Source of the DNA: an uncultured Prolixibacteraceae bacterium
GTDB lineage: Bacteria > Bacteroidota > Bacteroidia > Bacteroidales > UBA1556
NCBI GenBank assembly: GCA_964442545.1
Contig: CAYUAN010000249.1
Coordinates: 1-32,523, forward strand
Direction: 5' to 3'
DNA length: 32,523 nucleotides
Part shown: one piece after another, positions 6,294-28,176 of the stretch
Position numbering within the stretch: position 1 is the first letter of the stretch
How the letters are laid out: every line of letters begins with the position of its first letter
Program-made: the position numbers and the translations under genes
Notes under the pieces: generated by a model
What the model saw: the letters and a program-made list of their open reading frames with translations, nothing else
Told to the model about the DNA's origin: nothing
Databases searched by the model: none

Positions 6294-6301
6294 TATCTTT
6301 G
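6294..6301 (+). promoter_or_regulatory. Bacteroidota-type -7 promoter box (TAtcTTTG) for the tetR-efflux operon
   Basis: Exact TAnnTTTG match. Its position argues against the GTG start at 6301 and for the ATG at 6334. Confidence 0.45.
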
Positions 6302-6333
6302 TGTTCTCAAAAGTAGAAAATAAAGACAGTGCT

Positions 6334-6945: not shown

Positions 6946-8290
6946 ACTATTGCTGATTTATTTGTTGAGTTTGTTGGTTTTTCCGCTGACGGCCCAAAAA
7001 ACGTATATCCTGACATTACCTAAAGCCGTTGATTTGGCCTTACAGGAAAACCGGAATATTTTGAATGCCAAGGCCGACATTGCCATAGCCAAGAAAAAGG
7101 TGTGGGAAACCACCGCCATAGGTTTGCCGCAGGTGCGAACCGATATGAAGTTCAACGATATGTTGGATATCCCCGTTACCCTGATGCCGGAAAAGATTTT
7201 CAACCCCAATGCTCCGGAAGATTCTTATATCCCGATGAAGTTCGGGCAACAATATGGCGCGTCCTTTGATTTTTCGGTAAGCCAGTTGTTGTTCAGCGGG
7301 GAATATATCGTTGGTTTGCAGGCTTCGAAAACGTATCAGGAATTATCGCAAAAGGCCTCGCTCAAACAAGAAAATGATGTAATTGAGCTGGTTACAAAAT
7401 CCTATTATGCGGTGCTTTACGCTTACGAAAATGAGAAAGTGCTGCAATCGACCAAGGTGGATATTCAAAAAACATACGACGATTTGGAGAAAACGTATCA
7501 GGCGGGCATGGCGGACGAAACCGATGTCAGCCAATTGGAATTAAACCTGATTACAGTGAATAATTCATTGCTGTCCATTAAAAATCAGATACGGGTAGCG
7601 GAGCAAATTCTGAAATTTCAAATCGGGATTGATGTTAATGATTCCATCGTTTTGCTGGACAGCATACAGGGTTTGTTTGATGCCGCCAATTTGCAGGGCA
7701 TAATGAGCCAGAATTTTGATATGGATAAAAATATCGAATATCAAATGATGCAAACCCAAAAAGAAATTTCAAACTTGAATCTCAAGCGCGAAAGGTCTTT
7801 ATTCCTGCCGTCCCTGTCGGCTTTTTACACCCATCAGGTAAACGGGCAAACCAATGATTTCGGTGATTATTTCGACGGAAGTCAAAAATATTTTCAGTCA
7901 AACATTATTGGGGCGGGCCTGACGTGGAATATTTTCGGCAGCGGCTCCAAAATTGTGCGGGTACAACAGGCCAAGCTGGAGGTGGACAAAATTCGCAATC
8001 AGGAATACATTCTGCAACAGTCGCTTACCTTTCAGGTAAACCAAACACGCACCCAATTACTAAATGCCTACAATACCTATTTGAAAGAGGAAAAGAATAT
8101 CAAACTGGCCAAGCGGATTTACGATCGTTCGCTGGTGAAATTCCAAAACGGAATGATTAGCAGTACAGAACTGACCCAGTTAAACATACAGTACTTTAAT
8201 GCCCAGTCATCATATTATTCGGCGATGATGAATGTGCTGAACGCCAAAGCCGAACTGGATAAAATTTTAGGAAATAATATTACACGTTAA
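6938..8290 (+). CDS. TolC-family outer membrane efflux protein
   Basis: Signal peptide followed by the two-repeat OEP architecture of about 450 aa. It is the first structural gene of an OMP-MFP-RND set. Confidence 0.85.
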   Translation: MNRLLLIYLLSLLVFPLTAQKTYILTLPKAVDLALQENRNILNAKADIAIAKKKVWETTAIGLPQVRTDMKFNDMLDIPVTLMPEKIFNPNAPEDSYIPMKFGQQYGASFDFSVSQLLFSGEYIVGLQASKTYQELSQKASLKQENDVIELVTKSYYAVLYAYENEKVLQSTKVDIQKTYDDLEKTYQAGMADETDVSQLELNLITVNNSLLSIKNQIRVAEQILKFQIGIDVNDSIVLLDSIQGLFDAANLQGIMSQNFDMDKNIEYQMMQTQKEISNLNLKRERSLFLPSLSAFYTHQVNGQTNDFGDYFDGSQKYFQSNIIGAGLTWNIFGSGSKIVRVQQAKLEVDKIRNQEYILQQSLTFQVNQTRTQLLNAYNTYLKEEKNIKLAKRIYDRSLVKFQNGMISSTELTQLNIQYFNAQSSYYSAMMNVLNAKAELDKILGNNITR

Positions 8291-8302
8291 ACAGAGCCGA
8301 TT

Positions 8303-9445
8303 ATGAAAAAATTTGTCATTATACTATTAGCCGTGCTAAGCATATTTGCTTGTAAAAACACAAGTGATGACCCCAAGGCGATACAAGAAGAAATCAATAA
8401 AAAGAAAATGGAAATAATGAAGTTGCAAACCCAAATCCATGATTTGGAGAAGCAGCTGAAAGAGCAAGGAATAAATACGGACGACCGGAGTATTCTTGTA
8501 CGGACGATTACCGTGAAACCGCAGCGCTTTGTTCATAATCTGGATGTTACCGGTAATGTGGAAACGGATCTGGAAGCCTTTATCAGTCCGGAAATCAATG
8601 GGCTGGTGGATAATATTATTGTTCAGGAAGGTGATTTTGTGAAGGCCGGGCAATTGCTGGCCACCATTAATACCGACTTGATTGAAATGAATATTCAAGA
8701 AGTCAGTACCCAATTAAGTTTGGCCAAAACGGTATATAAAAAGCAAAAAGAATTATGGGACCAGAATATCGGGTCGGAGATTCAGTACCTGCAAGCCAAG
8801 ACCAATATGGAGGCTCTGGAAAAAAAGCTGGATGCCCTGAAAACACAGTTGAGCAAAGCGGATATCCGTGCGCCTTTTGAGGGCCATATCGAAAAAATTT
8901 ATCAAAAAGTCGGGGAGATGGGAAATCCGGCCCGCAACTTATTTCATTTGGTAAATCTGAGCAAACTGAAGGTTTCGGCCAATATATCGGAAACCCATTT
9001 GCCCTATATCAAAAAAGGTGATACGGCCACTATTTCATTTGCCATTTATCCCGATCTTGTTTTGCGCGAGCCCATCAGTGTAGTGGGCAGCGTGATAAAT
9101 CCGGCTAACCGGACTTTTGAAATCCAAATCCAAATTCCGAATAAAGACCGCCTGCTCCGTCCGAATATTATCGCCACGGTGCAAATCAGCGACCATGTCT
9201 ATGATTCGGCCATTGTGGTGCCCTCTATTATTGTAAAGAATGATGCCCAGGGAAAGAGCTACGTTTATGTGGCCGGGGAATCGAAGGGTGAAAAGGTGGC
9301 GCAAAAACGCTACATCATCACCGGTTTGAGCTATGGCAATAAAACAATGGTGGTAAATGGCTTGAAGCCGGGTGACCAATTGATTATTCAGGGATATAAT
9401 TTGGTTAAAAACGGCAGTGCAATTCGACTTAAAGAATCAAATTAA
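8303..9445 (+). CDS. Efflux RND transporter periplasmic adaptor (MFP/HlyD family), lipoprotein
   Basis: Lipobox (LSIFAC), a coiled-coil hairpin, a lipoyl-like segment and beta-barrel domains typical of AcrA/HlyD_D23 proteins. Confidence 0.85.
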   Translation: MKKFVIILLAVLSIFACKNTSDDPKAIQEEINKKKMEIMKLQTQIHDLEKQLKEQGINTDDRSILVRTITVKPQRFVHNLDVTGNVETDLEAFISPEINGLVDNIIVQEGDFVKAGQLLATINTDLIEMNIQEVSTQLSLAKTVYKKQKELWDQNIGSEIQYLQAKTNMEALEKKLDALKTQLSKADIRAPFEGHIEKIYQKVGEMGNPARNLFHLVNLSKLKVSANISETHLPYIKKGDTATISFAIYPDLVLREPISVVGSVINPANRTFEIQIQIPNKDRLLRPNIIATVQISDHVYDSAIVVPSIIVKNDAQGKSYVYVAGESKGEKVAQKRYIITGLSYGNKTMVVNGLKPGDQLIIQGYNLVKNGSAIRLKESN

Positions 9446-9455
9446 GACAAGCAGT

Positions 9456-12400
9456 ATGGAAAAGAAATCCGATCATAAAGACAGCATTGTGCGGAATTTT
9501 CGCTTGACAACCGCTGCGATTAACAACCGGAATACAGTTTTGTTGCTAACATTGATTCTGGCTGTTTACGGCCTGATTACTTACATCAATCTCCCGAAAG
9601 AAAGTTTTCCGGATATCAGTATTCCCAAGGTGTTTGTAAAAACGGTTTATCCGGGAAACCCGCCGGTGGATATGGAAAACCTGATTACCCGGCCATTGGA
9701 AAAAGAATTCAAAACCATTAAAGGAGTTAAGGAAATACGCTCGGTTTCATCACAGGACAATAGCGATATCATCGTGGAGTTTAAAAGTGATTATGATATC
9801 AAAAAGGCCTTGCAGGATATAAAAGACGCTATTGACAATGCCAAAAGCGACCTGCCCGATGATCTGAAAATGGACCCGATAGCCAATGAATTGGATGCTT
9901 CGGAATTCCCGATTTTGAGCATCAATCTTTCCGGTGATTTTAGTATCGAGGAGCTGAGAAATATTTCAGAAGATTTAAAGGATGATATTGAAGCCCTGCC
10001 GGAAATTTCAAAAGTGGATATCAAGGGTTTAAACGACAGACAGATTAATATCAATATCGATCAGGCCAGGATGACGGCAAATAATGTCAGTTTTAAGGAT
10101 ATTGAAAATGCCATTAAGTTTGAAAACCTTTCCATGTCGGGTGGTGAAATCGTAACCGACCAAACCACGCGTGCCGTGCGTATTGACGGGGAATTCAAGG
10201 ATGTGAGCGAGATGAATGATATTATCGTTAAGCACGAAAAAGGAAATATAGTTTATCTGCGCGATATCATTAAAGGCGGTAAAGTGGTGGACGGCTACGT
10301 GGACCCGCTGACCTTCGCCCGCCTTGACGGCGAAAAGGTGGTGTCGCTGTCCGTAGTGAAAAAAAGCGGTGAGAACCTGATTGACGCTACAGTCAAGATT
10401 AACAAGGTGCTGGATGAATCCAAGGCTTCCGGACTGATTCCGGAAAACATGAAGATGGTGATTACCAACGATATGTCGGATGTGGTAAAAAAATCCGTGA
10501 GTAATCTGGAAAACAGCATCATTATGGGGATGATCCTGGTAATCTCCGTGCTGTTTTTCTTTCTCGGCCTGCGAAACGCGCTCTTTGTCGGGCTTGCCAT
10601 TCCCATGTCGATGCTGACCTCTTTTGTAGTTATCGGTATGTTTGGCTATACCATTAATATGATGATATTATTTGGTTTAGTCTTGGCATTGGGTATGTTA
10701 GTAGATAATGCAATTGTGGTTGTCGAAAATGTTTATCGTTTTATAGACAGAGGTTATAGTGTATTCGAAGCTACGCGGCAGGCCGTTGGGGAAATTGCCT
10801 GGCCGATTATAGGCTCTACGGCAACTACACTGGCGGCATTCTTACCCTTAATTTTTTGGCCGGGCCTGGTGGGAAGTTTTATGAGTTTGCTCCCTAAAAC
10901 ATTGATTATAGTATTAACGTCCTCCTTGTTTGTAGCCTTGGTTATTGTGCCTACGTTTATTGTAATGCTGGTAAAGGAAGGTAATGAGGAGCATCCGCCG
11001 CGAAAGAAACGCATGTTTGTCACTTTGGCGATAATGGCGGTTTTCATTGGTGCAGGCTATGCAATGGGTGTTTCCTGGCTGGCAAACTTCACCATTTTTA
11101 TGGCTATTTTGGTTGTTGCCAATTATTTATTTCTCTACAATTGGAGCAAGAAGTTTCAGACAAATTTCTTAAGCTGGCTGGAGGCTTATTATTTGCGGGT
11201 ACTCAATTGGGCATTGTCCGGCCGTAAGCCGCGTATGTTGCTGGGCGGCGGTTTCGTTTTATTAGTCGTGACCATGATATTTTTTGGTGCTGCGGGCGGA
11301 AATGTGATTTTCTTCCCGAATAACCAACCGCGCTACCTGAATGTAACGATGAAACTTCCCATTGGTACCGATATCGATTCTACCAATCGTTTCGCCTTTT
11401 CTATCGGGCAAAAAATTCAACGGATGTTGGAGCAGGATACCAGCATTATTAAATCCATTTTGACTACGGTTGGTAAAGGGGCTGTCGGAGAACGAGAGCA
11501 GAGCTTTGGGAATAACCCCGAAAAAGCCTTGATAACCATAACTTTTATTGATTTTGATTTGCGGATGAACCACCGATCGTCCACCGAAATTATGAAAGAG
11601 CTTTCGGACTCCTTGATTGGGCAATATCCGGGCGTGCAAATTTCCGTGGAGAAAAACAAAATGGGACCACCCACCGGAAAGCCTGTAAATATTGAAGTTA
11701 CAGGTAAAGATTATCCCACATTAATCGCCCTGACGGATTCCATTATGGCTTTTATCGAAAATGCCGATGTGCCCGGAATAGAAGAATTAAAAAAAGACCT
11801 GGACAACGGAAAGCCTGAAATAATTATTAATATCGACCGGGAAAAAGCACGCCGCTTTGGAATGTCCACAGGACAAATCGCCGAGAGTATCCGTACTTCT
11901 TTGTTTGGCAAGGAGGTGAGCGACTTTAAGGATGGCGAGGATAAATACCCGATACGGGTGCGCTTGTCGAAAGAAGACAGGAATCGCATTACCAATCTGT
12001 TTAATCAAAAGATTTATTTCCGTAATAAGCAGGGAAAAGCTATGGAAATTCCTATATCTTCCGTGGCCACTTTGCAATACAGCAACACCTATGGCTCGGT
12101 AAACCGTAAGGATTTGAAGCGGAATATTACCATTTATTCCAATGTGTTGGAGGGCTATAATGCCAATATAATAAACGGACAGTTGAAAACCCTCTTGCGT
12201 GGTTTTGACCTGCCCGAGGGCTATTCCATCAGCTTCACGGGTGAGCAAAAAGACCAGGCCGAATCAATGGATTTTATGATCAAGGCCCTGACTATCGCCA
12301 TTGCTTTGATTTTCCTGATTCTGGTTACCCAGTTCAATTCCTTTGCCAAGCCCTTTATCATCATGATTAGCGTGCTGTTCAGCACGATTGGCGTTTTTGG

Positions 12401-12890
12401 CGGTTTAGCTACTTTCAAAATGGATTTTGTGGTAATTATGACCGGTATTGGTATTATCTCCCTTGCCGGAATTGTGGTAAACAATGCCATCGTATTAATA
12501 GACTATATCGACTTGCTCAAAAATCGCCGGAGGGTAGAGCTGGGGATGCATCTGGAAGATGACTTGCCTATAGAGGAAAGTATCAGCTGTGTTATTGAAG
12601 CCGGAAAAACCCGTTTGCGTCCTGTATTGCTGACTGCCATTACCACGGTTTTGGGATTGGTACCGATGGCTATTGGAATGAATATCGATTTTGGCGGCCT
12701 GCTGAACGACCTAAGGCCTAACCTCTATTTCGGTGGCGAAAATGCCGACTTCTGGGGTCCGATGGCTTGGACCGTAATCTTCGGATTGACCTTTGCCACC
12801 TTTATGACCCTGATACTTGTTCCCGTAATGTATGTGGTGGGAAATAAGATTAAACTGGGCATAAAGAAGATGGTCAGCGGGGGGAAATAA
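9456..12890 (+). CDS. Efflux RND transporter permease (AcrB/CzcA superfamily), 1144 aa
   Basis: Full-length RND architecture with two large periplasmic loops and conserved TM4/TM10-type segments (LALGMLVDNAIVVVEN and LAGIVVNNAIVLIDY). I place the start at the ATG at 9456, after the adaptor stop. Confidence 0.9.
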   Translation: MEKKSDHKDSIVRNFRLTTAAINNRNTVLLLTLILAVYGLITYINLPKESFPDISIPKVFVKTVYPGNPPVDMENLITRPLEKEFKTIKGVKEIRSVSSQDNSDIIVEFKSDYDIKKALQDIKDAIDNAKSDLPDDLKMDPIANELDASEFPILSINLSGDFSIEELRNISEDLKDDIEALPEISKVDIKGLNDRQININIDQARMTANNVSFKDIENAIKFENLSMSGGEIVTDQTTRAVRIDGEFKDVSEMNDIIVKHEKGNIVYLRDIIKGGKVVDGYVDPLTFARLDGEKVVSLSVVKKSGENLIDATVKINKVLDESKASGLIPENMKMVITNDMSDVVKKSVSNLENSIIMGMILVISVLFFFLGLRNALFVGLAIPMSMLTSFVVIGMFGYTINMMILFGLVLALGMLVDNAIVVVENVYRFIDRGYSVFEATRQAVGEIAWPIIGSTATTLAAFLPLIFWPGLVGSFMSLLPKTLIIVLTSSLFVALVIVPTFIVMLVKEGNEEHPPRKKRMFVTLAIMAVFIGAGYAMGVSWLANFTIFMAILVVANYLFLYNWSKKFQTNFLSWLEAYYLRVLNWALSGRKPRMLLGGGFVLLVVTMIFFGAAGGNVIFFPNNQPRYLNVTMKLPIGTDIDSTNRFAFSIGQKIQRMLEQDTSIIKSILTTVGKGAVGEREQSFGNNPEKALITITFIDFDLRMNHRSSTEIMKELSDSLIGQYPGVQISVEKNKMGPPTGKPVNIEVTGKDYPTLIALTDSIMAFIENADVPGIEELKKDLDNGKPEIIINIDREKARRFGMSTGQIAESIRTSLFGKEVSDFKDGEDKYPIRVRLSKEDRNRITNLFNQKIYFRNKQGKAMEIPISSVATLQYSNTYGSVNRKDLKRNITIYSNVLEGYNANIINGQLKTLLRGFDLPEGYSISFTGEQKDQAESMDFMIKALTIAIALIFLILVTQFNSFAKPFIIMISVLFSTIGVFGGLATFKMDFVVIMTGIGIISLAGIVVNNAIVLIDYIDLLKNRRRVELGMHLEDDLPIEESISCVIEAGKTRLRPVLLTAITTVLGLVPMAIGMNIDFGGLLNDLRPNLYFGGENADFWGPMAWTVIFGLTFATFMTLILVPVMYVVGNKIKLGIKKMVSGGK

Positions 12891-12915
12891 TTTGCGTTTG
12901 AATGAGATTTAATTC

Positions 12916-12949
12916 AAAGCCGGAGAAATTACTTCGGCTTTGTGTTTTT
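12916..12949 (+). terminator. Intrinsic terminator after the efflux operon
   Basis: AAAGCCGGAG / CTTCGGCTTT stem with one G-U pair on the + strand, followed by GTGTTTTT. Confidence 0.6.
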
Positions 12950-12995: not shown

Positions 12996-14609
12996 TTGAA
13001 AAATATAAATACTTTTAGTCGGCAATTTCAAAACAAACGATTAGAATTTAATACATTGAGATATATACTTTTAGCATCATTTATTTTCGTCTTTACCTGG
13101 CGTGCCGCTGCCCAGCAAAATGTAAAGCAATCCGCAGATTATTATCTGAATTTCTGGAAAACCAATCTGGACAGTCTGTGCGACAGCTGGGTCGTAAAAC
13201 AGCAGTTTACACCCGTCCCGCCCAAAATACAGGCCGAAATCAGCAGCCCGGTGATTATTACCGAGCAAAACTGTGGCGGCTATGTGGCTGTGCTGCACCC
13301 CAAAGACTTTTACCGCCGCAATCCGCGTGTGCGAGAGATACTGACTTATTATTTGCAACAAAAAAGCCGGCTGGAAATAGCATTTTCCTACCGGCAGTCG
13401 CTGGATGCTATTTTTATCCCCGAACTAAAAAAAGCGGGCCTGCCCGAAGAGTTGAAAAACCTGCCGATTGCCTTGTCGGCCATGAATAATAAAGCCATCG
13501 GCAAAACCGGGGCCGGCGGACTGTGGCAAATAATGTATGCCAACGGCCGGCGGCAGGGCTTGCGCATCGATTCGTATGTGGATGAGCGGCGCGATGTACG
13601 CGTGGCGGCAAAAGCGGCGATCGCCGAGCTGAAGTTCTATTACGGGCTTTACCAAAACTGGGAACTGGCTCTTGCGGCCTACACTTGTGGTGCAACCAAT
13701 GTGAATAAGGCCATCCGCCGCAACGATAACCAAAAAGATTTTTACGCCATTTACCAATCCCTGCCCGATTTTGGCCGCGATGTGGTGCCGGCCGTTACCG
13801 CCATCAGCATTATCGAGCAAAACAAAAAAACATTCGAGTTGAATATCCCCGAATGGAAACTGAATATTCCCGTTGATACGGTGGAGGTTTCGCAGCGTCT
13901 GCATTTCGCACAGCTGGAGGCGATTCTGGATATTCCGATTGAAGAGCTGCGTTATCTGAACCCCAAATATAAATTTGATATCGTGCCTGCCATCGACGAG
14001 GTCTTTCATATTTTATTGCCCGCCGGCAAACTGGCCGGATTTAACGCGCTGGAAGATTCCATTTACCACTACAAAGACACCATCCTCTTTAATCTGAAAA
14101 AGCCGGTGGTTTTGCCTCCGCCATCCAAAGGAAGCCATTATTCACGTTACCAGCCCGAACTGCCGCCCGACAATAGTACACTGTTGTACTACACCATCAA
14201 ATCGGGTGATAATCTGGGTTATATAGCCTCCTGGTACGGGGTGAAAGTGCGGCAGATTGAGGATTGGAATAATATTTACGACCCGCGCCGCCTGAAACTG
14301 GGCCGGAAACTAAAAATTTATGTGCCCGAAGATAAGGCGGATTATTATCGTCCGGTGGACAAACTCAGTTTTGCGGAAAAGCAAAAGCGTGTGGGACGCA
14401 CGGTTTCCGCCAAGCAAGCACAGGCGCAAAAACAAGAACCGCTTGGCCCGGATTTTTTCTGGTACACGGTGAAGCCGGGGGAATCGCCCTATATCATTGC
14501 CAAGAAATATCCCGGCGTAAGTGCCGACGATATCATGCGTTGGAATAATATTAAGGACCCGCGTTATATTAAGGCCGGGCAGAAACTGAAAATCAAGAGA
14601 GTGAAATGA
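12996..14609 (+). CDS. MltD-like protein: family-1 lytic-transglycosylase (SLT) fold plus two C-terminal LysM domains; catalytic Glu apparently absent
   Basis: SLT motifs GLWQ and AYTCG are present, and two LysM repeats are visible (YYTIKSGDNLGYIASWYGV... and WYTVKPGESPYIIAKKYPGV...). The E-S catalytic motif position reads L-S (LPIALSAMN). The start is uncertain. There is no in-frame ATG, so the candidates are the TTG at 12996 and the TTG at 13056. The latter would give MRYILLASFIFVF..., a cleaner signal peptide. Confidence 0.75.
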   Translation: MKNINTFSRQFQNKRLEFNTLRYILLASFIFVFTWRAAAQQNVKQSADYYLNFWKTNLDSLCDSWVVKQQFTPVPPKIQAEISSPVIITEQNCGGYVAVLHPKDFYRRNPRVREILTYYLQQKSRLEIAFSYRQSLDAIFIPELKKAGLPEELKNLPIALSAMNNKAIGKTGAGGLWQIMYANGRRQGLRIDSYVDERRDVRVAAKAAIAELKFYYGLYQNWELALAAYTCGATNVNKAIRRNDNQKDFYAIYQSLPDFGRDVVPAVTAISIIEQNKKTFELNIPEWKLNIPVDTVEVSQRLHFAQLEAILDIPIEELRYLNPKYKFDIVPAIDEVFHILLPAGKLAGFNALEDSIYHYKDTILFNLKKPVVLPPPSKGSHYSRYQPELPPDNSTLLYYTIKSGDNLGYIASWYGVKVRQIEDWNNIYDPRRLKLGRKLKIYVPEDKADYYRPVDKLSFAEKQKRVGRTVSAKQAQAQKQEPLGPDFFWYTVKPGESPYIIAKKYPGVSADDIMRWNNIKDPRYIKAGQKLKIKRVK

Positions 14610-16078
14610 AACCGCTGAAAACACTGGCTTTCTTTCTTCTGGTGGGCGCCTTTTTGCTGCCTGCCGTATTATTGTTTCCCGAAGAGGGTATCGAAATGGG
14701 GCCTTTTAAATTGCAAATGATGACCCTGGATGATATTTTTGCCAAGGACACCGTGCAATATGCCGATATCAGCGATTTGATTCAAAACGGTTTTGATGAA
14801 GATTCCCTGCCCGATATTACCGAGATGCTTCCGCCGGCTGCCGATAGCGTGGAAATTCCTTTGGAGGAAGATACGGTGCGTGCCGATGCCGCGGCCCTGG
14901 CGGCAAGCGTTTATCGCCTGGAATTTCCCAATGGCGACAAAAGCATACTGAATACCTTTTTCAAATCGCTGGATCAATTGGCGGCGGGTAAAAAAGAGCT
15001 TGTGCGGATTCTTCATTATGGCGATTCGCAGATTGAGGGCGACCGCATCAGTAGTTATATTCGCAATAAGCTGCAAACCAAATACGGGGGAACGGGTCCC
15101 GGATTATTGCCCGCCCTGCAACCCTACGAATCGTATTTTTCCATTACGCAAACCAACGAAGGCGATTGGCGTCGCTATGCCGTTTTCGGGCGTAAAAATC
15201 CTGAGGTGGAACATAAAAGTTATGGCGCTTTGGCGGCATTTTCCCGTTTTGCACCCATCGTCCCCGATTCGCTCTTTAAAGATTCGGTTTTATATACGGC
15301 CGCTGTGAATTTCAGCGAGTCCAAGGTGGCTTATTCACGGGTGCGTACGTTCCAAAAAGTGCAGATTTTTTATGGCAATGCGAAACGTCCGGTGGAAGTC
15401 AGTTTATGGGTGGACGAGGTGGAAGTGTATCGCGACAGCCTGAAAGCGGATGTTGATTATGCCCGCTTCAGTTACGTTTTGCCGCAGGCGACAAAAAATC
15501 TGAGCATTAAATTCAGCGGCTACGACAGCCCCGACATTTACGCGATTTCCCTGGAAAGCCTTTCCGGAATTAGTTTGACCAATATCGGTATGCGGGGCAG
15601 CTCGGGAACCGTGTTTAACAAAATGGAATACGGACACCTGAATCGAATGTATGCCGACCTCAACGTGAAATTGTTTATTCTGCAATTTGGCGGAAATGTA
15701 ATGCCTTATATCAAAGATTCTTCGGAAGCGATTAGTTACGGACGATGGTTCTACAGCCAGTTGCGCAGTTTGAAAAAAATGCGGCCCGATGCTTCCTTTG
15801 TGGTTATCGGCCCCTCGGATATGTCGTACAAAGTGAAGGATAAATACCTTACGTATCCTTTCCTTCCATTGGTGCGCGACGAATTGCGCAAAGCCACGCT
15901 CAAAGCGGGATTTGCCTATTGGGATATGTTTGAGGCGATGGGCGGATACAACTCGATGCCCTCGTGGGTAAATGCCGATCCCGCACTGGCCGGAAGCGAT
16001 TATACGCACTTCACTCCGCGCGGGGCCAAGCTGATTGCCAATATGTTTTATAATGCTTTGATGATTGAGAAAAAATGA
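14606..16078 (+). CDS. SGNH/GDSL-family hydrolase or acyltransferase with N-terminal membrane anchor (Ape-like architecture)
   Basis: Block I is HYGDSQIEGD, with the Ser141 codon at 15026-15028. Block II-like is IGMRGSSG, block III is QFGGN and block V is DYTHF. About 180 aa are inserted between blocks I and II. The ATG overlaps the upstream stop (ATGA at 14606-14609). Confidence 0.75.
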   Translation: MKPLKTLAFFLLVGAFLLPAVLLFPEEGIEMGPFKLQMMTLDDIFAKDTVQYADISDLIQNGFDEDSLPDITEMLPPAADSVEIPLEEDTVRADAAALAASVYRLEFPNGDKSILNTFFKSLDQLAAGKKELVRILHYGDSQIEGDRISSYIRNKLQTKYGGTGPGLLPALQPYESYFSITQTNEGDWRRYAVFGRKNPEVEHKSYGALAAFSRFAPIVPDSLFKDSVLYTAAVNFSESKVAYSRVRTFQKVQIFYGNAKRPVEVSLWVDEVEVYRDSLKADVDYARFSYVLPQATKNLSIKFSGYDSPDIYAISLESLSGISLTNIGMRGSSGTVFNKMEYGHLNRMYADLNVKLFILQFGGNVMPYIKDSSEAISYGRWFYSQLRSLKKMRPDASFVVIGPSDMSYKVKDKYLTYPFLPLVRDELRKATLKAGFAYWDMFEAMGGYNSMPSWVNADPALAGSDYTHFTPRGAKLIANMFYNALMIEKK

Positions 16079-17373
16079 TGAATGGCCTGCGACTGACCGG
16101 TTTAGTTCTGTTGCTGATGTTGTCGGCAAGGCTCTCCTTTGCCCAATATTACGAATATCCTTTCCCGATTAGTCATTACGACTTTGTCAATTACGACAGC
16201 AGCCGTATCGAATATCCCGGCGGGGAAGGCGCTTTAGACCGTTTTTACCAACGCCTGTCGGAGGTGGTGCTCGAAGGAAAAGGGCAGGTAAATATTGTGC
16301 AAATCGGAGGTTCGCATATTCAGGCCGATATGATGTCGGGCGAGTTGCGTACCCGTTTTCAATCATTCGAAGGCGGCCAAAATGCGGGGCGGGGCTTTGT
16401 GTTTCCCTACCGTTTGGCACGTACCAATACGCCTTTTGGTTATCATTTCGAATACAGCGGTAAATGGTCCACTTGTCGCAATGTGGAGAAAAAACGGGTG
16501 TGCCGCCTGGGCATGGCCGGAATTAGTGCCTATACTACCGATTCGGCAGCTTCGTTGGCTGTTTGTTTCGAGCCCGAAAACGATATTAAATACCGCTTTA
16601 ACGCCTTGAAAGTGTATCACGATACCGGGCCGGATGCCTTTGCCGTGCAGATTGACAGCAATTTGCTCGATACCTTGTGGGTGGATACTCTGGGTGGTTT
16701 TACGCAAATTGTATTGAAGGATTATCTGGATAGTTTGGGGATGCGTTTTGTTAAAACCGACAGTTTGCAAAATGGGTTTATGCTGTACGGAATGAATCTG
16801 GAAACGGATGAGCCCGGCATTGTTTTTCATAATCTGGGAATCAACGGCGCGGCGACGACTTCTTTCTTGCGTTGTCAATTGCTGAGTGCGCAACTGGCTA
16901 CGCTGAAACCCGACCTGGTTATTCTCGGGCTGGGCATTAATGATGCCTATGGCAGAAATTTCAGTCAGCGTGAATATGAGCGTAATTACGAACAGCTGGT
17001 AGGCGAGATTCGCAAAGCCAATCCCGATGTGTGCATTTTGTACACCACGAATAACGACAGTTATATCCGGCGGCGCTATTTGAACCGGAACGGAATAAAG
17101 GTACAGCAAAGCATGAAGCGGCTGGCCAAAAAGCAGGACGCGGCCCTTTGGGATATGTTCGAAGTGATGGGCGGCCTCAATTCCATTGTGCGCTGGCAGC
17201 GTTACGGCCTGGCCAAAGCTGATCGCATTCACTTTACACGGCCGGGCTATTTACTGATGGGCGATTTGATTTTTGACGCGCTCATTCGCGATTTTGGCGA
17301 TTATCTGCAACGACAGTACGATTCCGCCGAACAAGCCAATCTGTTGAACCCGAAAAACGGCAACCGAAGATGA
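16075..17373 (+). CDS. SGNH/GDSL-family hydrolase or acyltransferase, secreted (paralog of the preceding gene)
   Basis: It has a signal peptide. Block I is QIGGSHIQAD (Gly replaces the usual Asp), block II-like is LGINGAAT, block III is LGINDA and block V is DRIHF. It carries the same large insertion between blocks I and II. There is an ATGA overlap at 16075-16078. Confidence 0.75.
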   Translation: MMNGLRLTGLVLLLMLSARLSFAQYYEYPFPISHYDFVNYDSSRIEYPGGEGALDRFYQRLSEVVLEGKGQVNIVQIGGSHIQADMMSGELRTRFQSFEGGQNAGRGFVFPYRLARTNTPFGYHFEYSGKWSTCRNVEKKRVCRLGMAGISAYTTDSAASLAVCFEPENDIKYRFNALKVYHDTGPDAFAVQIDSNLLDTLWVDTLGGFTQIVLKDYLDSLGMRFVKTDSLQNGFMLYGMNLETDEPGIVFHNLGINGAATTSFLRCQLLSAQLATLKPDLVILGLGINDAYGRNFSQREYERNYEQLVGEIRKANPDVCILYTTNNDSYIRRRYLNRNGIKVQQSMKRLAKKQDAALWDMFEVMGGLNSIVRWQRYGLAKADRIHFTRPGYLLMGDLIFDALIRDFGDYLQRQYDSAEQANLLNPKNGNRR

Positions 17374-19040
17374 CGATATCCGAAATGGCAGCCCATATAT
17401 TTCTGTACGATCCGGAGAAGCCGCTGATCTTCACCCGGTTCTACTTTTGGGTGTTTTATGCCATTGTGCTGGCCGGTTATTCGCTGGTTTACAAAAACCG
17501 CAACCGGACCATTCGTGCCGCTTATCTGTTTGCCGTAAGCTTGTTTTTCTACTACAAATCCAGCGGGATGTTTTTCTTTATTCTGCTGTTTTCCACGCTC
17601 ACCGATTTTTATATCGGCAAATGGGTGTATGAGTCGCGAACCGTACTGGCCAAGCGTTTGCTCATCAGTTTGAGCATTACCATAAATCTGTTTTTGCTGG
17701 TATATTTCAAATACACCTATTTCTTTACCGAGAGCATCAATCAAATGTTCGGCACCGATTTTCAGGTGGTGAATTATATGGCTATGTGGGCAAACTCGGC
17801 TACGGGCACGCATTTCGAGGTGGATCAGATTCTGCTGCCGGTGGGTATTTCCTTTTATACCTTCCAAACCATTTCCTATTCCATAGACGTATATCGGGGC
17901 GAGGTGAAGCCTGTAAAAAATCTTATCGACTTCGGCTTTTATGTGAGCTTTTTTCCGCAGTTGGTGGCGGGACCCATTGTGCGCGCGGCACAGTTTATTC
18001 CGCAGATGTACAAGGATTATAAGCTTACCAAAGCCGAATTCGGATTGGCGATTTTCTGGATAATGAAGGGCCTGGTGAAAAAGATATTTATCGGCGATTA
18101 TATTGCCGTAAACTTTGTTGACCGGGTGTTTGATGCACCCTTGCATTATACCGGAGTGGAAAATCTTTTGGCCCTCTTCGGCTATTCCTTGCAGGTGTAT
18201 GTGGACTTTTCCGGTTATACCGATATGGCCATCGGGGTGGCGCTGCTTCTGGGATTCCGCCTGCCCAAAAACTTCGACTCGCCCTACAAAGCCCAAAATG
18301 TGGGTAATTTCTGGAAACGCTGGCATATTTCGTTGTCCACCTGGCTGAAGGATTACCTCTATATTCCCATGGGCGGAAATCGCGGAGGCTCGTTGTTCAG
18401 CTATATCATGCTGACGATTATCCTTCTGTTTATCACTCTTTTGGTGGGAAAATGGTGGGTGTTCCCCGCTTTGGTGAGCACGGGCTTGGTTATCGGTTTT
18501 ATCTCCTGGAAATTCCCCAACTTCAAACGTCAGGTGAACACCAATATCAACCTCATGCTTACGATGCTTCTGGGCGGTTTGTGGCATGGTGCCAGTTGGC
18601 AATTTGTAATTTGGGGCGGACTGAACGGTTTGGGGCTTGTGGTATATAAATTCTGGCGAAAAATCAGTCCTTGGGAAAAATCTACCCATCGCCTGGCGGT
18701 GGTGTGGAAAATCGCGATTACGTTTACCTTTATCACCTTTACGCGGGTATTTTTCCGTTCCGAGAGTATGGAGGTGGTGAACGGAATGTTGCATCAGATT
18801 TTCAGTCCCACGGCACTTTCTTTGATTCCCGAAATACTGGTATCCTACAAATGGCCGCTGCTGGTCATGCTCATTGGATTTGTATTCCACTGGCTGCCTT
18901 ATTCCCTGAAAGACCGCTACCGGAATTGGTATATCCGCCAGCATTTTGTGGCCCAGGCCGCCATATTCGCCCTGGTGGTATTTGTGGTCTATCAGTCCAT
19001 ATCTTCCGATATGCAGGCCTTTATTTACTTCCAGTTTTAA
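17370..19040 (+). CDS. MBOAT-family membrane-bound O-acyltransferase (AlgI/PatA/DltB-like)
   Basis: Polytopic protein of 556 aa with MBOAT signature segments (FWKRWHISLSTWLKDYLYIPMGGNRGG and LLGGLWHGASWQFVIWG, the latter containing the conserved His). There is an ATGA overlap with the upstream gene at 17370-17373. Confidence 0.9.
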   Translation: MTISEMAAHIFLYDPEKPLIFTRFYFWVFYAIVLAGYSLVYKNRNRTIRAAYLFAVSLFFYYKSSGMFFFILLFSTLTDFYIGKWVYESRTVLAKRLLISLSITINLFLLVYFKYTYFFTESINQMFGTDFQVVNYMAMWANSATGTHFEVDQILLPVGISFYTFQTISYSIDVYRGEVKPVKNLIDFGFYVSFFPQLVAGPIVRAAQFIPQMYKDYKLTKAEFGLAIFWIMKGLVKKIFIGDYIAVNFVDRVFDAPLHYTGVENLLALFGYSLQVYVDFSGYTDMAIGVALLLGFRLPKNFDSPYKAQNVGNFWKRWHISLSTWLKDYLYIPMGGNRGGSLFSYIMLTIILLFITLLVGKWWVFPALVSTGLVIGFISWKFPNFKRQVNTNINLMLTMLLGGLWHGASWQFVIWGGLNGLGLVVYKFWRKISPWEKSTHRLAVVWKIAITFTFITFTRVFFRSESMEVVNGMLHQIFSPTALSLIPEILVSYKWPLLVMLIGFVFHWLPYSLKDRYRNWYIRQHFVAQAAIFALVVFVVYQSISSDMQAFIYFQF

Positions 19041-19068: not shown

Positions 19069-19076
19069 TATCTTTG
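19069..19076 (+). promoter_or_regulatory. Bacteroidota-type -7 promoter box (TAtcTTTG) for surE
   Basis: Exact TAnnTTTG match, 22 nt upstream of the ATG at 19098. It lies inside the longer ORF-track version of surE, which supports the shorter start. Confidence 0.45.
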
Positions 19077-19097
19077 CAGCCAAACGAGAAAAGAAAT

Positions 19098-19874
19098 ATG
19101 TCAAAACCACTTATATTAGTTACCAATGATGATGGTATAGATGCGCCGGGCTTGCGCAAATTAATCGAACTGATGCGGCAGTTGGGCCGTGTGGTTGTGG
19201 TGGCTCCTCAGGAACCGCAATCGGCTATGAGCCATGCAATAACCATCAAATATCCTTTGATGTACAAAGAAATTGAGCTGTCGGATGATTATAAGGAATA
19301 CAGTTTGAACGGAACACCGGTGGATTGTGTGAAATTCGGCATTCACCGCTTGTTGGACGAAAAGCCCGATTTGGTGGTTTCGGGCATTAATCACGGTTCC
19401 AATGCCTCTGTAAACATCATTTACAGCGGCACGATGGCCGCGGCTTTGGAAGCCGGAATGGGCGGTATTCCCGGTATCGGGTTTTCTATTTTGGATTATA
19501 ATCCGGATGCGGACTTTAGCCAGGCCGAGGACTATATTTTGGCTCTTTCGCGCAAGGTATTGCGTGAGGGTTTGGACGAAGGTCTTGCCTTGAATGTGAA
19601 TTTCCCAAAACCATTGAACGGCAATGCCTATAAAGGAATTAAAGTATGCCGTCAGGCCTCGGCCTATTGGAAGGAGGATTTCGAAGAGCGGATTGATCCG
19701 CGCAACGGGAAGCCCTATTTCTGGTTGACGGGCACCTTCAATCTGCAAGAAGATAACAATACGACCGACGAATGGGCGTTACAGAATTATTATGTTTCCG
19801 TGGTGCCGGTTCAGTTCGATTTCACGGCGCATAAGTTGATTGATAAATTCAAATCCTGGGAGCAAGATGCTTAA
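19098..19874 (+). CDS. surE: 5'/3'-nucleotidase SurE
   Basis: N-terminal ILVTNDDGIDAPGL motif plus GINHGSN and the overall SurE pattern. Confidence 0.9.
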   Translation: MSKPLILVTNDDGIDAPGLRKLIELMRQLGRVVVVAPQEPQSAMSHAITIKYPLMYKEIELSDDYKEYSLNGTPVDCVKFGIHRLLDEKPDLVVSGINHGSNASVNIIYSGTMAAALEAGMGGIPGIGFSILDYNPDADFSQAEDYILALSRKVLREGLDEGLALNVNFPKPLNGNAYKGIKVCRQASAYWKEDFEERIDPRNGKPYFWLTGTFNLQEDNNTTDEWALQNYYVSVVPVQFDFTAHKLIDKFKSWEQDA

Positions 19875-20172
19875 ATTGTTAAAAACCAATTCAGTTTGGT
19901 ACGGAATTGCCATCGGGCTATTGGTACCGGTAATTTTATACTTTTCGCTCAGTTTTATAGTGGAAAAATTAAGCCTGGAATTAACCTTTGGTATTCAGTT
20001 GGTGCAGGAAAAGAATATCGAGCTGGTAAGTATTTTTCTGAACCTCTTTATTATGTATCCTTATCTGCAAAAGCCCGATTATGAGCGAACAGGCAGAGGG
20101 GTGTTGCTGGTTACCTTTATTATGGCCTTACTGCATTTCTTTTTTCGTTATAAATACCTGCTGTTTAACTAA
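19867..20172 (+). CDS. Small hypothetical membrane protein (about 3 TM helices)
   Basis: The ATG at 19867 overlaps the surE stop. The 101-aa product is hydrophobic, and I recognise no family. Confidence 0.5.
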   Translation: MLKLLKTNSVWYGIAIGLLVPVILYFSLSFIVEKLSLELTFGIQLVQEKNIELVSIFLNLFIMYPYLQKPDYERTGRGVLLVTFIMALLHFFFRYKYLLFN

Positions 20173-20181: not shown

Positions 20182-21294
20182 ATGAAGTATTTTATCGTTG
20201 CCGGCGAGCCTTCGGGCGATTTACATGCAGCCAATTTGATTTCGGCCTTAAAGCAGGAAGATGCTACGGCGGAATTCCGTTTTTGGGGCGGCGATAAAAT
20301 GCAGGAAGCGGCCGAAACAGCTCCCCTTAAGCACTATCGTGAGTTGGCCTTTATGGGTTTTGTGGAGGTGGTGCAAAATATTGGAGCCATCATGGGTAAT
20401 TTGAAGCTCTGTAAAAAGCAAATTAAGGAATACCGGCCCGATGTGGTTATTTTGGTGGATTATCCGGGCTTTAACCTGAAAATCGCCAAGGCGGCACATT
20501 ATTACGGCTTCAAAGTTTTCTATTATATTTCTCCGAAAATATGGGCATGGAAACAGCGTCGCGTTCATGATGTGAAGAAATACGTGGACATGATGTTTAC
20601 CATTTTGCCTTTTGAAACCGATTTTTACAAAAAATTCGGCGTAGAGGTGCAGTATATCGGAAACCCCCTGATGGACAGTATTCTGGCCTATAAAGAGGCT
20701 AATGAAGAAAGCAAGGTGCCGAAAGGAAAGCCGGTAATCGCCTTGTTGCCGGGCAGCCGTGCGCAGGAATTGCGCCGTATTTTACCCGATATGCTTTCCA
20801 TCCTGCCCGATTTTCCCGGCTATAGTTTTGTGGTGGCGGCCACCTCTGCCTTAGACCGGGAAGTATATAATGAAATTATAGGAACACGTTCGGTGCATTT
20901 GGTTTTTGATCGTCCGTATGATGTGTTGGAACATGCTGAAGCAGCCTTGGTCACTTCGGGTACGGCGACGCTGGAAACAGCCCTGCTGAATATTCCGCAG
21001 GTGGTCTGCTACAAAGCCAATCAAACCTCTTATAATATCGCCAAACGTGTGGTGCATATTAAATATATTTCGCTGGTAAATCTTGTTTTGGACAGGGAGG
21101 CCGTGCGGGAATTGATTCAAAACGACCTGAATACGGCCAATCTGAAAACGGAACTACACGCTATTGTCAAAGGCGGTAGTAAGCGGGAAAAGATGTTGGA
21201 GGACTATGCGGAACTGCGGAAGCTGATTGGCGGGCCGGGCGCTTCGGAACGTGCGGCCAAACTGATGGTGAAATATTTACGGCCTGCCGAATGA
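20182..21294 (+). CDS. lpxB: Lipid-A-disaccharide synthase
   Basis: N-terminus MKYFIVAGEPSGDLHAANLI and the full-length LpxB pattern (LLPGSR, TSGTATLE). Confidence 0.9.
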   Translation: MKYFIVAGEPSGDLHAANLISALKQEDATAEFRFWGGDKMQEAAETAPLKHYRELAFMGFVEVVQNIGAIMGNLKLCKKQIKEYRPDVVILVDYPGFNLKIAKAAHYYGFKVFYYISPKIWAWKQRRVHDVKKYVDMMFTILPFETDFYKKFGVEVQYIGNPLMDSILAYKEANEESKVPKGKPVIALLPGSRAQELRRILPDMLSILPDFPGYSFVVAATSALDREVYNEIIGTRSVHLVFDRPYDVLEHAEAALVTSGTATLETALLNIPQVVCYKANQTSYNIAKRVVHIKYISLVNLVLDREAVRELIQNDLNTANLKTELHAIVKGGSKREKMLEDYAELRKLIGGPGASERAAKLMVKYLRPAE

Positions 21295-21400: not shown

Positions 21401-22069
21401 TTATTCGATTAAAACATACCGGATGGGTAAGGTATAATAAACCCGTACGGGTTTATTGCGTTGCATGCCGGGTTTCCATTTAGGCATTGCTTTAATGGCG
21501 CGCACGGCCTCTGCATCACATTCTTCGGAGATGCCGCGCTTTACCTCTATATGGGAAATACTGCCGTCTTTTTCCACCACAAAACCGACATATACCGTTC
21601 CTTGAATACCGGTTTCCACCGCCATTCTGGGATATTTTACGGTACTCAGATAGCGCATTAAGGCTTCCTCGCCACCGGGAAATTCAGGCATATTTTCAAT
21701 GGGGACGAAAATAACAGGCTCCACCTCTTCCACAGGCTCATCCTCAATGAGTGCATAGTTTTCCATTGGCTCGTCCGCGCCAATTTCCACATTGATTTCA
21801 ATATCAGGAATGTCGGTTTTATTGGTGACCTCAAATATTGTTACGGGTTTGGGTTTCGGAGGTTTTATTTCCTCGGGCCGCATGGTTTGAACAATCACAT
21901 CGGTTTCTTCTTCCATAGCCATATTGCCGAAATCATAATGCTCAGGGCCCTCATATACGCGGTACTCAAAAGCCATCCAACTTAAGGAAAGACTTACGAC
22001 CAATCCGAACAGGAAGTAGCTTCTGCGCCGGGATTCCAGATTTGCTTTTTTGCTTTTTTTAATTTCCAT
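21401..22069 (-). CDS. Energy transducer TonB-family protein (paralog 1)
   Basis: N-terminal anchor (MEIKKSKKANLESRRRSYFLFGLVVSLSLSWMAFEY), an acidic/Pro linker, and a C-terminal TonB domain (FPGGEEALMRYL...GTVYVGFVVEKDGSI...KPGMQRNKPV). I place the start at the ATG at 22069. Confidence 0.8.
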   Translation of the reverse strand: MEIKKSKKANLESRRRSYFLFGLVVSLSLSWMAFEYRVYEGPEHYDFGNMAMEEETDVIVQTMRPEEIKPPKPKPVTIFEVTNKTDIPDIEINVEIGADEPMENYALIEDEPVEEVEPVIFVPIENMPEFPGGEEALMRYLSTVKYPRMAVETGIQGTVYVGFVVEKDGSISHIEVKRGISEECDAEAVRAIKAMPKWKPGMQRNKPVRVYYTLPIRYVLIE

Positions 22070-22321
22070 AATAAAGTGTTTTACAGGTTTGTAATTTGAT
22101 TTTATCGGGCACATCAAGGCTAAACTTCGGGCATGAAAATTCCATTAAACAGCAAGCTGTTTTTAGTTTAGTGACAAACCGGCCAATTTGAGAATGTGCA
22201 GTCTGTCAGGGAGATTCATAAACTGTGCCAAAAGAAGGGTTAAATCTAATTTTGATGTGTTATTTGTATTTTATGATTGATTGGATCCTTTGTAGCATAT
22301 TATGATTTCTTTGTTTTCGCT

Positions 22322-26613: not shown

Positions 26614-26625
26614 AGTATATCGTTA

Positions 26626-28041: not shown

Positions 28042-28050
28042 GCCCGATTG

Positions 28051-28058
28051 CAAATATA
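28051..28058 (-). promoter_or_regulatory. Bacteroidota-type -7 promoter box (TAtaTTTG on minus strand) for the two-component operon
   Basis: Exact TAnnTTTG match ending only 9 nt before the ATG at 28041, which implies a very short or absent leader. Confidence 0.4.
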
Positions 28059-28170: not shown

Positions 28171-28176
28171 CAGCAG

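Follow-up and report, generated by a model that had tools for sequence, protein, structure and literature searches.

An ape1b-ape1c-patA-type cluster of Bacteroidota headed by an MltD-derived gene without the catalytic glutamate: a probable peptidoglycan O-acetylation operon

Through peptidoglycan O-acetylation, bacteria control both their resistance to lysozyme and the activity of their own lytic transglycosylases (LTs). To our knowledge, the mechanism of this modification has been resolved only in the cases of OatA and PatA/PatB, of which PatB, formerly named Ape2, later proved to be the transferase; we know of no PatB in Bacteroidota, the phylum which includes dominant gut and marine bacteria. 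Here we describe a four-gene cluster located at positions 12996-19040 of a 32,523-nucleotide stretch of DNA from an uncultured Prolixibacteraceae bacterium (contig CAYUAN010000249.1, analysed at its full length and referred to below as the window). We consider it likely that the cluster is a Bacteroidota-type peptidoglycan O-acetylation (OAP) operon, that is, an ape1b-ape1c-patA cluster preceded by a dedicated MltD-derived protein lacking the catalytic Glu. The cluster type as such has been known since 2005, and its Glu-less MltD-derived first gene is the under-described element.

In the PatA/PatB/Ape1 machinery, PatA places an acetyl group on the Tyr in its own C-terminal FxYxxF motif, and PatB takes this group over from that peptide (Anderson et al., 2025, PMC12148441). 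PatB proteins are marked by replacement of the block II Gly with Ser or Asn, giving a type I turn, by two wing-like beta-hairpins and by the absence of the CBM35 insert, while MBOAT-SGNH pairs at large act on several polymers (PMC12148441). In N. meningitidis the lytic transglycosylase LtgA and Ape1 form a complex with mutual stimulation, the effect on Ape1 extending even to a substrate on which LtgA has no action of its own (Williams et al., 2020, PMC7083599). An LT gene also adjoins the pat operon in Zymomonas. A survey of 2005 (Weadge, Pfeffer & Clarke, PMC1199599) records clusters of the ape1b-ape1c-pat type without ape2 for B. thetaiotaomicron, B. fragilis and P. gingivalis, along with peptidoglycan O-acetylation of 27% in B. 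thetaiotaomicron and 69% in B. fragilis; in Bacteroides it notes a cation-efflux transporter upstream. No functional work on the Bacteroides cluster or on the roles of its two paralogues was found in the literature searched beyond that survey.

In the window, four consecutive open reading frames (ORFs) of the + strand are joined by three ATGA stop/start overlaps, exactly at the coordinates given in the initial annotation. The features of the cluster are laid out below; SG1 denotes the gene 2 type ('Ape1b' position) and SG2 the gene 3 type ('Ape1c' position).

12996-14609, + strand: gene 1 (537 aa), MltD-like, with signal peptide, Glu-less SLT domain, MltD linker domain and two LysM domains
13410-13739, + strand: SLT (family 1 lytic transglycosylase) domain of gene 1, aa 139-248 (Pfam, 8rhe alignment)
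13473-13475, + strand: Leu160 codon TTG at the position of the MltD catalytic Glu (8rhe alignment)
14181-14318, + strand: LysM domain 1 of gene 1, about aa 396-441 (Pfam, 8rhe alignment)
14463-14597, + strand: LysM domain 2 of gene 1, aa 490-534 (Pfam, 8rhe alignment)
14606-14609, + strand: ATGA stop/start overlap of genes 1 and 2 (sequence read)
14606-16078, + strand: gene 2 (SG1, 490 aa), with transmembrane anchor, disordered linker and Ape1-type SGNH domain with inserted beta-sandwich
14612-14674, + strand: transmembrane anchor of gene 2, aa 3-23 (hydropathy 2.57)
15026-15028 and 16007-16009, + strand: catalytic S141 and H468 of gene 2, respectively, the other catalytic residues being G331, N364 and D465 (Ape1 alignment)
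16075-16078, + strand: ATGA stop/start overlap of genes 2 and 3 (sequence read)
16075-17373, + strand: gene 3 (SG2, 432 aa), with cleavable signal peptide and Ape1-like SGNH domain
16312-16314, + strand: catalytic S80 of gene 3, the other catalytic residues being N289, D383 and H386 (Ape1 alignment)
17370-17373, + strand: ATGA stop/start overlap of genes 3 and 4 (sequence read)
17370-19040, + strand: gene 4 (556 aa), PatA-type MBOAT (Pfam MBOAT 2e-22)
18585-18587, + strand: invariant His406 of gene 4 in GLWHG (motif)
19020-19037, + strand: C-terminal FIYFQF of gene 4, fitting the FxYxxF acetyl-tyrosine motif, with Tyr553 at 19026-19028

The MBOAT call originally made for gene 4 is upheld by its Pfam match and by its PatA-type catalytic His and tail. 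The combination expected of OAP systems is present, i.e., an MBOAT protein with the catalytic His and the C-terminal FxYxxF Tyr (gene 4) and, adjoining it on the same strand, SGNH proteins of the Ape/PatB type with a Ser-His-Asp triad (genes 2 and 3); GLWHG and the C-terminal FxYxxF motif are kept in 54/55 gene 4 orthologues. Genes 2 and 3 are paralogues (26% identity over about 400 residues, E 3e-23), and the best solved-structure match of each is Ape1, with two collinear stretches bracketing the inserted domain. Gene 2, which matches GDSL_2 weakly, hits N. meningitidis Ape1 (4k3u) at 7e-14 and 54.9 bits, or at 7e-19 in a profile search; gene 3 matches GDSL_2 at 4e-19, the same Ape1 structure at 6e-20 (phmmer, 74.6 bits) and C. 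jejuni Ape1 (8gkd) at 9e-9. The AlphaFold (AF) model of gene 2, with a predicted local distance difference test (pLDDT) value of 73.5, was matched by Foldseek to the Neisseria Ape1 4k3u (E 2e-19, template modelling (TM) score 0.77) and to the Campylobacter Ape1 8gld (E 2e-16, TM 0.72). The early description of both proteins as Ape-like SGNH paralogues is thus supported by sequence for the two of them and by predicted fold for gene 2, and the insert-split SGNH fold of Ape1 is recognized as a fold match in gene 2 and as a collinear phmmer match in gene 3. Blocks I, II, III and V of Ape1 (GDS(H), oxyanion Gly, GxN and DxxH) are found in both. Those of gene 3 (GGSH, GINGA, GINDA, DRIH) are nearly identical to the Ape1 ones, and about 175 residues separate its Ser80 from block II, much like in Ape1; those of gene 2 (GDSQ, RGSSG, GGNV, DYTH) are atypical, and its block II loop is poorly modelled (pLDDT <50 at aa 329-339). 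The catalytic residues of gene 2 are 100% conserved in 81 orthologues, and those of gene 3 are 92-100% conserved in 69. Judging by this conservation of the catalytic Ser, Gly, Asn, Asp and His, both SGNH proteins are therefore probably active enzymes.

The PatB structures 7TJB and 8TLB were absent both from the sequence matches of genes 2 and 3 (all PDB sequences, E up to 10) and from the top 50 Foldseek matches of the gene 2 model. As phmmer, profile and Foldseek searches gave Ape1-type matches only, membership of either protein in PatB was rejected; both paralogues keep the block II Gly, as aligned to G236 of Ape1, and carry the insert. The residue preceding the catalytic His (Thr in gene 2, Ile in gene 3, Val in Ape1) does not discriminate. 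With no PatB-type protein in the cluster, an Ape1-fold protein must therefore perform the acetyl transfer, and at least one of the two paralogues is probably not an esterase, because the system needs a transferase. The pair of Ape-like paralogues without PatB, initially regarded as unexplained, corresponds to the Ape1b/Ape1c pairing already catalogued in the 2005 survey (PMC1199599).

The cluster was followed across genomes with a gene 2 profile, using one genome per species; relatives of gene 2 occur in at least 595 species-level genomes, and 80 loci (L006-L085) were kept, with labels of Bacteroidales, Marinilabiliales, Flavobacteriales, Cytophagales and Chitinophagales type. The four-gene order of the window was found on one strand in 48/80 Bacteroidota loci, and the junctions are mostly overlaps or gaps of <20 nt. 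The proposed conservation check thus came out positive for the order and the tight packing and negative for the exact ATGA. The recurrence of this order and of tight junctions across Bacteroidota shows the unit to be conserved rather than an accident of one window. Two loci with typical Bacteroidota-type clusters (L039 and L080) carry Gammaproteobacteria/Betaproteobacteria labels (Luminiphilus, Comamonadaceae) and are probably mis-binned contigs of metagenome-assembled genomes (MAGs).

The combination of LysM and SLT domains first read from gene 1 was recovered in profile searches (Pfam SLT 1e-19; LysM 2e-28 in two stretches), and the NCBIfam MltD model matched the protein at 8.5e-47, under that model's cut-off. 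Its alignment to P. aeruginosa MltD (PDB 8rhe, 1.4e-27) is gap-free around the active site, and the top Foldseek matches of the AF model (pLDDT 81.5) are P. aeruginosa MltD structures 8rhf, 8rhe and 8rhi (E 2e-16). Gene 1 thus possesses the MltD architecture, comprising the SLT fold, the MltD linker domain and C-terminal LysM. The active-site segment 'LPviESAyN' of MltD aligns with 'LPIALSAMN' of gene 1, so that the 'ES' motif becomes 'LS' and Leu160 occupies the place of the catalytic Glu; gene 1 was therefore filed as MltD-derived and not as an MltD enzyme. The suspected loss of Glu is not only real but proves to be a widespread conserved state. Among the homologues, Glu is absent from all of the 52 closest ones (>=44% identity); the remoter homologues mostly read IIESALNP at the active site. 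The groove motifs GLWQ, SYVDERR and AAYxCGxxNVNKAIRR are kept in the gene 1 product. In the Glu-less proteins more generally, the fold and both LysM domains persist together with several groove motifs; AYN and RETRGY have degenerated, and no compensating conserved acidic residue was found elsewhere in the SLT domain. Many residues, those in both LysM domains included, are invariant among the 24 closest homologues of gene 1. Its N-terminus, MRYILLASFIFVFTWRAAAQQ, contains no Cys and represents a signal peptidase I type signal, the lipobox Cys of a lipoprotein signal such as that of E. coli MltD being absent from it.

Across the loci, an MltD-like gene stands directly 5' of the gene 2 orthologue in 60/77 cases with enough flank. 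Among 59 such cluster-linked genes the Glu is present in 19 and absent in 40, where it is replaced by Leu (24 loci), Ile (4), Val (3), Ser (3), Cys (2) and Lys, Phe, Arg or Gln (1 each). When pairs were matched at 40-50% SG1 identity, SLT-domain identity amounted to 32% among Glu-less and 72% among Glu-bearing proteins; constraint on the catalytic domain is therefore relaxed in the former, though intact full-length ORFs are found across Bacteroidota orders, down to about 25-30% identity. Overlap with gene 2 by 4 or 1 nt was observed in 22/38 Glu-less versus 1/19 Glu-bearing loci (Fisher p = 1e-4, uncorrected for phylogeny and with heuristic start choice). The genomic context differs as well: parA-parB-DUF5683 precedes the Glu-bearing copy in 14 loci, every Bacteroides-labelled locus included, and 0/40 Glu-less copies. 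The Glu-bearing exceptions are L047, L048 and L069, while L022 and L025 start within the Glu-bearing gene, so their upstream side lies outside the sequence. What lies downstream of canonical Glu-bearing mltD genes behind parAB-DUF5683 varies: the full cluster (P0071), only an SGNH gene of the gene 2 type (P0320, a Marinilabiliales-labelled MAG) or unrelated genes (P0055). The simplest reading is that in Bacteroides-like lineages the acetylation genes lie behind the housekeeping mltD, and elsewhere, as in the window, they occupy another site and have their own MltD-derived gene that has lost catalysis. A neighbour-joining tree groups the Glu-bearing sequences in one clade with short branches, and only one change is needed under parsimony, a count that rate heterogeneity makes unreliable. 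The new element of the present locus is accordingly a widespread Glu-less MltD-derived partner with its own genomic context, faster evolution and tighter coupling; no description of a Glu-less or catalytically inactive MltD, nor of a dedicated SLT-fold pseudo-enzyme partner of acetylation machinery, was found in the literature searched.

Several observations on these loci are of separate interest. The genes at L007:2801-4378 (Lys) and at L049:2404-3972 and L065:6343-7941 (Ser) are near-canonical MltD-like genes except for the catalytic position, which suggests recent, possibly independent losses of Glu. The parA-parB-DUF5683-mltD block is conserved in many Bacteroidales-type genomes (L020, L026, L028-L030, L036, L040, L053, L056, L057, L061, L062, L068, L073, L086-L094), with DUF5683 always between parB and the Glu-bearing mltD, and hints at a link of chromosome segregation/division genes with this lytic transglycosylase. 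At L092:8626-11519 (also in L093 and L094; Marinilabiliales-labelled MAG) only one SGNH gene, of the SG1 type, comes after the canonical mltD, and next to it stands a gene of the Mur ligase family, with no second SGNH or MBOAT gene within 7 kb. In two loci devoid of the MltD-like gene, an enolase superfamily (MR_MLE_C) gene lies just 5' of the SG1 orthologue (L034:6824-7906 and L038:6762-7811); this superfamily includes the L-Ala-D/L-Glu epimerases of peptidoglycan recycling.

We infer the enzymatic activities, the roles of the paralogues and the protein-protein contacts of such an operon as follows. The gene 4 MBOAT would take acetyl from cytoplasmic acetyl-CoA via His406 and, by analogy with the PatA mechanism, would auto-acetylate Tyr553 of its periplasm-facing FIYFQF tail. 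One Ape1-fold SGNH protein, presumably that of gene 2, would then accept the acetyl group on its catalytic Ser and pass it to the C6-OH of MurNAc, and the other one, presumably that of gene 3, would strip the O-acetyl groups so that the glycan strands can be remodelled. The gene 1 product, having the MltD fold and two LysM domains with Leu160 in place of the catalytic acid, is for this reason proposed to bind the glycan strands without cutting them, and it may target the SGNH enzymes, present substrate to them or regulate them, in a manner reminiscent of Neisseria LtgA, which binds Ape1 and stimulates it. The initial inference of a peptidoglycan O-acetylation operon is hence strengthened by the Ape1 homology, the PatA-type tail, the lack of alginate- or cellulose-type matches and of exopolysaccharide genes next to the cluster, and the Bacteroides/Porphyromonas precedent.

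In this scheme, gene 2 is slightly favoured over gene 3 as the membrane-tethered acetyl acceptor/transferase, and gene 3 is favoured as the soluble O-acetyl-peptidoglycan esterase. The N-terminal anchor followed by a linker of ~100 residues before the SGNH domain, as in PatB, is seen in gene 2 only (linker of ~70 residues disordered, with aa 46-91 disordered in the model and the catalytic Ser at 141); this likeness is one of architecture and not of membership, but the transmembrane helix and disordered linker are among the reasons for the preference. The others are that the block motifs are remodelled in gene 2, while gene 3 keeps the Ape1 motifs and a cleavable signal peptide; that SG1 stands directly beside the MBOAT gene in three loci from which gene 3 is absent (L019, L026, L061); and that partial correlations of distance matrices tie gene 2, not gene 3, to the MBOAT. 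The latter mirror-tree values (0.49 for SG1-MBOAT versus 0.11 for SG2-MBOAT) are weak, and the SG1 hub may only be a proxy of the species tree.

A number of facts weigh against the proposed scheme. The window is metagenome-derived, and the start codons behind the overlap statistics were picked heuristically. Neither gene 2 nor gene 3 has the features said to mark PatB transferases. The upstream MltD-like gene is missing from 17/77 loci, where the gene in its place is unrelated, and about one third of the clusters keep a canonical Glu-bearing MltD, so that a non-catalytic partner is not a general requirement. The neighbour of the MBOAT gene in most loci is gene 3 and not gene 2, and SG1-type genes occur without a nearby MBOAT gene, either together with MltD (L081, L092-L094) or alone (L027, L059). 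Finally, the 2005 classification places the first gene of the pair, Ape1b, with the esterase-type Ape1a (PMC1199599). The presence/absence pattern over the 80 loci is conflicting (SG1 with MBOAT in 3, SG1 with SG2 only in 3, MltD with SG1 only or SG1 alone in several), in a sample biased by the use of SG1 as the query.

The immediate adjacency of gene 3 to the MBOAT gene and the SG1-type genes lacking an MBOAT neighbour would fit a reversal of the roles, gene 3 being the PatB-equivalent transferase and gene 2 an esterase that forms an LtgA-Ape1-like esterase/LT module with the MltD-like protein. The coupling of genes 1 and 2, the tightest of the cluster, is in line with the LtgA-Ape1 precedent, and in the 2005 survey the pairs are Ape1b with Ape1c or Ape1a/1b with Ape2 (=PatB), so that Ape1c takes the place of Ape2 (PMC1199599). 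Yet it is gene 3 that preserves the esterase signatures and scores higher against Ape1 enzymes (74.6 versus 54.9 bits) and has a cleavable signal peptide, the PatB-like membrane anchor being on gene 2; the three loci with gene 2 beside MBOAT and no gene 3, as well as the partial correlation of only 0.11 between SG2 and MBOAT, also speak against the exchange. Considering both sides, we regard the reversed assignment as a serious competitor, with a probability somewhat short of even.

A more specific version of the proposed OAP operon can be suggested tentatively, and we find it rather doubtful when taken as a whole. Most Bacteroidota outside the Bacteroides-like lineages would, according to it, use a PatB-less machine composed of an Ape1-fold acetyltransferase and a dedicated, stoichiometrically co-translated Glu-less MltD subunit. 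This subunit would seat the glycan strand in a groove of the LT type, so that the MurNAc C6-OH is placed as it is when an LT acts, and would offer the strand for acetylation or de-acetylation rather than for cutting; its gene would be a copy of the parAB-DUF5683-linked mltD, re-purposed when the cluster moved.

That the gene 1 product still cleaves glycan through another residue or mechanism, with cleavage coupled to acetylation as in the Glu-bearing clusters of Bacteroidales, appears improbable. Its fold and many groove residues are kept, a Glu-bearing MltD occupies the same position in 19 loci, and some other LT families are known to use Asp instead of Glu. Residual catalysis is nevertheless disfavoured by a catalytic position that varies by lineage (L, I, V, S, C, K, F, R, Q), the absence of a conserved acidic substitute elsewhere in the domain, the degraded AYN and RETRGY substrate motifs and a constraint on SLT strongly relaxed in comparison with the Glu-bearing proteins.

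Even less probable is the acetylation of a polymer other than peptidoglycan (exopolysaccharide, capsule or a glycan of lipopolysaccharide), in the manner of AlgI/J/X or WssH/I and with the LysM/SLT protein as a mere neighbour. MBOAT-SGNH pairs do serve several polymers (PMC12148441), the best NCBIfam match of gene 4 is DltB, under its cut-off, so that the MBOAT by itself does not identify the substrate, and 11 kb before the cluster there is a gene for a Wzy_C (O-antigen ligase-like) protein. Against this stand the top solved-structure matches of both SGNH proteins, which are peptidoglycan O-acetylesterases, and the fold of gene 2, which leads to the same enzymes; no matches to AlgX, AlgJ or WssI were obtained for the SGNH proteins at E up to 10. 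The conserved neighbour (60/77 loci) belongs to a family of peptidoglycan enzymes, MltD, the Glu-bearing clusters follow parA-parB-DUF5683, a housekeeping context, and Bacteroides species with this cluster have O-acetylated peptidoglycan according to the 2005 survey (PMC1199599). On neither side of the cluster does the window contain genes for glycosyltransferases or polysaccharide export, and exopolysaccharide genes were likewise not seen in these flanks or in those related loci for which gene calls were inspected. A placement of the SGNH proteins with AlgJ/AlgX-type acetyltransferases, part of a situation which the initial annotation named as fatal to its proposal, was not encountered. Membership in AlgI/AlgJ/AlgX or WssH/WssI was rejected for lack of such Pfam, PDB-sequence or PDB-fold matches.

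A decaying, functionless gene 1 carried along by the operon, which the much faster evolution of its SLT domain relative to Glu-bearing relatives might suggest, is highly improbable in view of the full-length ORFs persisting across Bacteroidota orders to about 25-30% identity, the many residues, both LysM domains included, invariant in the 24 closest homologues and the coupling to gene 2 that is more frequent, not less, in the Glu-less loci.

The boundaries of the unit are given by two further features.

12915-12942, + strand: terminator-like hairpin with T-run, 11 bp stem, 6 GC pairs (hairpin scan)
19069-19076, + strand: TATCTTTG, match to the Bacteroidetes -7 box TAnnTTTG, 22 nt 5' of the probable surE ATG 19098

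The upstream terminator of the initial annotation was located as this hairpin, which lies directly 3' of the RND pump gene (9417-12890), closes the upstream TetR/OEP/MFP/RND efflux operon and sets the 5' boundary of the unit. The downstream promoter box fared less well: the motif match is there, and TAnnTTTG is no more frequent in the window than by chance (34 found versus 33 expected from shuffles), so only the position before surE makes it a suggestive 3' boundary. Gene 1 probably starts at TTG 13056, yielding a product of 517 aa, as follows from the JGI gene call, the homologue lengths of 510-527 aa and a -7 box with one mismatch at 13010-13017, 5' of this start candidate. For surE, listed as ORF 19074-19874 from TTG, the start is probably ATG 19098 (258 aa), as used by other gene callers, and not TTG 19074. 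A scan of the window with a sigma-70 promoter model, which is inappropriate for Bacteroidota, returned sites no more numerous than in shuffled controls, and the Rfam scan of the whole window gave no RNA family at threshold.

The efflux operon directly 5' of the cluster (6301-12890) has overlapping junctions and comprises genes for a TetR-family regulator (6301-6945), an outer-membrane factor (6938-8290), a membrane fusion protein (8303-9445) and the RND pump. Downstream, a hydrophobic ORF (19840-20172, 101-110 aa) with no Pfam match overlaps the end of surE and precedes lpxB (20182-21294). The RND pump, SurE and LpxB were rejected as conserved neighbours of the cluster, for they occur in 0/80 genome loci (L006-L085) and only in metagenome contigs with the same proteins. 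GC content is 0.48 in the four-gene cluster (13001-19000) against 0.43-0.45 in both flanks, a difference that might stem from the cluster having been relocated or transferred in this lineage. Opposite the MBOAT gene, the - strand has a 547-aa ORF (17301-18944), and similar long antisense ORFs face genes 1-3; in all likelihood these are shadow ORFs that merely mirror the coding strand. The remainder of the window (21401-22117, 24254-24931, 25918-30074, 31365-32360) represents ordinary chromosomal context; its further genes encode two TonB_C proteins, a two-component system, LpxD, an extracytoplasmic function (ECF) sigma factor followed by a 415-aa ORF without Pfam match (possible anti-sigma factor), and a protein that combines a PLD domain with a C-terminal sorting domain for type IX secretion.

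The locus makes it testable which of the Ape1-fold paralogues transfers acetyl and, hence, what turns an SGNH esterase into a transferase, as well as what role is played by a catalytically dead LT that is retained across several orders, evolves fast and is coupled to an SGNH enzyme. Should the proposed scheme be right, it would offer a direct view of how two reactions at one MurNAc C6-OH, cleavage and acetylation, are kept in step; should it be wrong, the locus would be a well-conserved but ordinary member of the cluster type known since 2005.

Of the systems compared, the ape1b-ape1c-pat cluster is similar in having two SGNH genes of the Ape1 family ahead of an AlgI-like MBOAT gene, no Ape2/PatB, the same phylum and, as regards Bacteroides, an efflux transporter upstream (PMC1199599). 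The present locus differs from that account in the upstream MltD-like gene, which, together with its coupling and Glu loss, is unmentioned in the accessible part of the paper, and in gene 3, where about 175 residues follow motif I at the place in which Ape1c is described there as lacking the ~100-aa insert (PMC1199599). With the PatA/PatB/Ape1 systems of Neisseria and Campylobacter it shares the MBOAT catalytic His, the FxYxxF acetyl-Tyr shuttle, the operon organization, SGNH proteins with the Ser-His-Asp triad and, in terms of fold, the separate Ape1 esterase with a CBM35-type insert (PMC12148441). It deviates from them in the lack of a PatB-type SGNH protein (no detectable wing hairpins, block II Gly kept, no PatB fold match), in the reversed gene order with MBOAT last and in the extra LT-derived first gene. 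Like LtgA-Ape1 of N. meningitidis (PMC7083599), an LT-fold protein would be paired with an O-acetyl-peptidoglycan esterase; unlike LtgA, which is an active enzyme of the Slt70 type and has its gene at a separate place in the genome, the partner in the window is MltD-type, Glu-less and translationally coupled.

Gene 1 resembles P. aeruginosa MltD (8RHE/8RHF) in its SLT fold, MltD-specific linker domain and C-terminal LysM, with 29% identity to the MltD core in the Foldseek alignment (8rhe/8rhi) and a TM score of 0.6-0.7 on target, and departs from it in the Glu to Leu replacement, the degraded AYN/RETRGY motifs and the missing lipobox Cys. Unlike the parA-parB-DUF5683-linked MltD, it is encoded inside the OAP operon. 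The degenerate LytM factors EnvC, NlpD and ActS, which activate amidases, have a hydrolase fold without catalytic residues, often together with LysM. Gene 1 is comparable to them as a peptidoglycan hydrolase fold without its catalytic residue, proposed to be a regulator or targeting factor, and differs in the fold itself and in the class of the partner enzyme; if the dead LT indeed presents or targets glycan, it would be the LT counterpart of the degenerate LytM activators of amidases.

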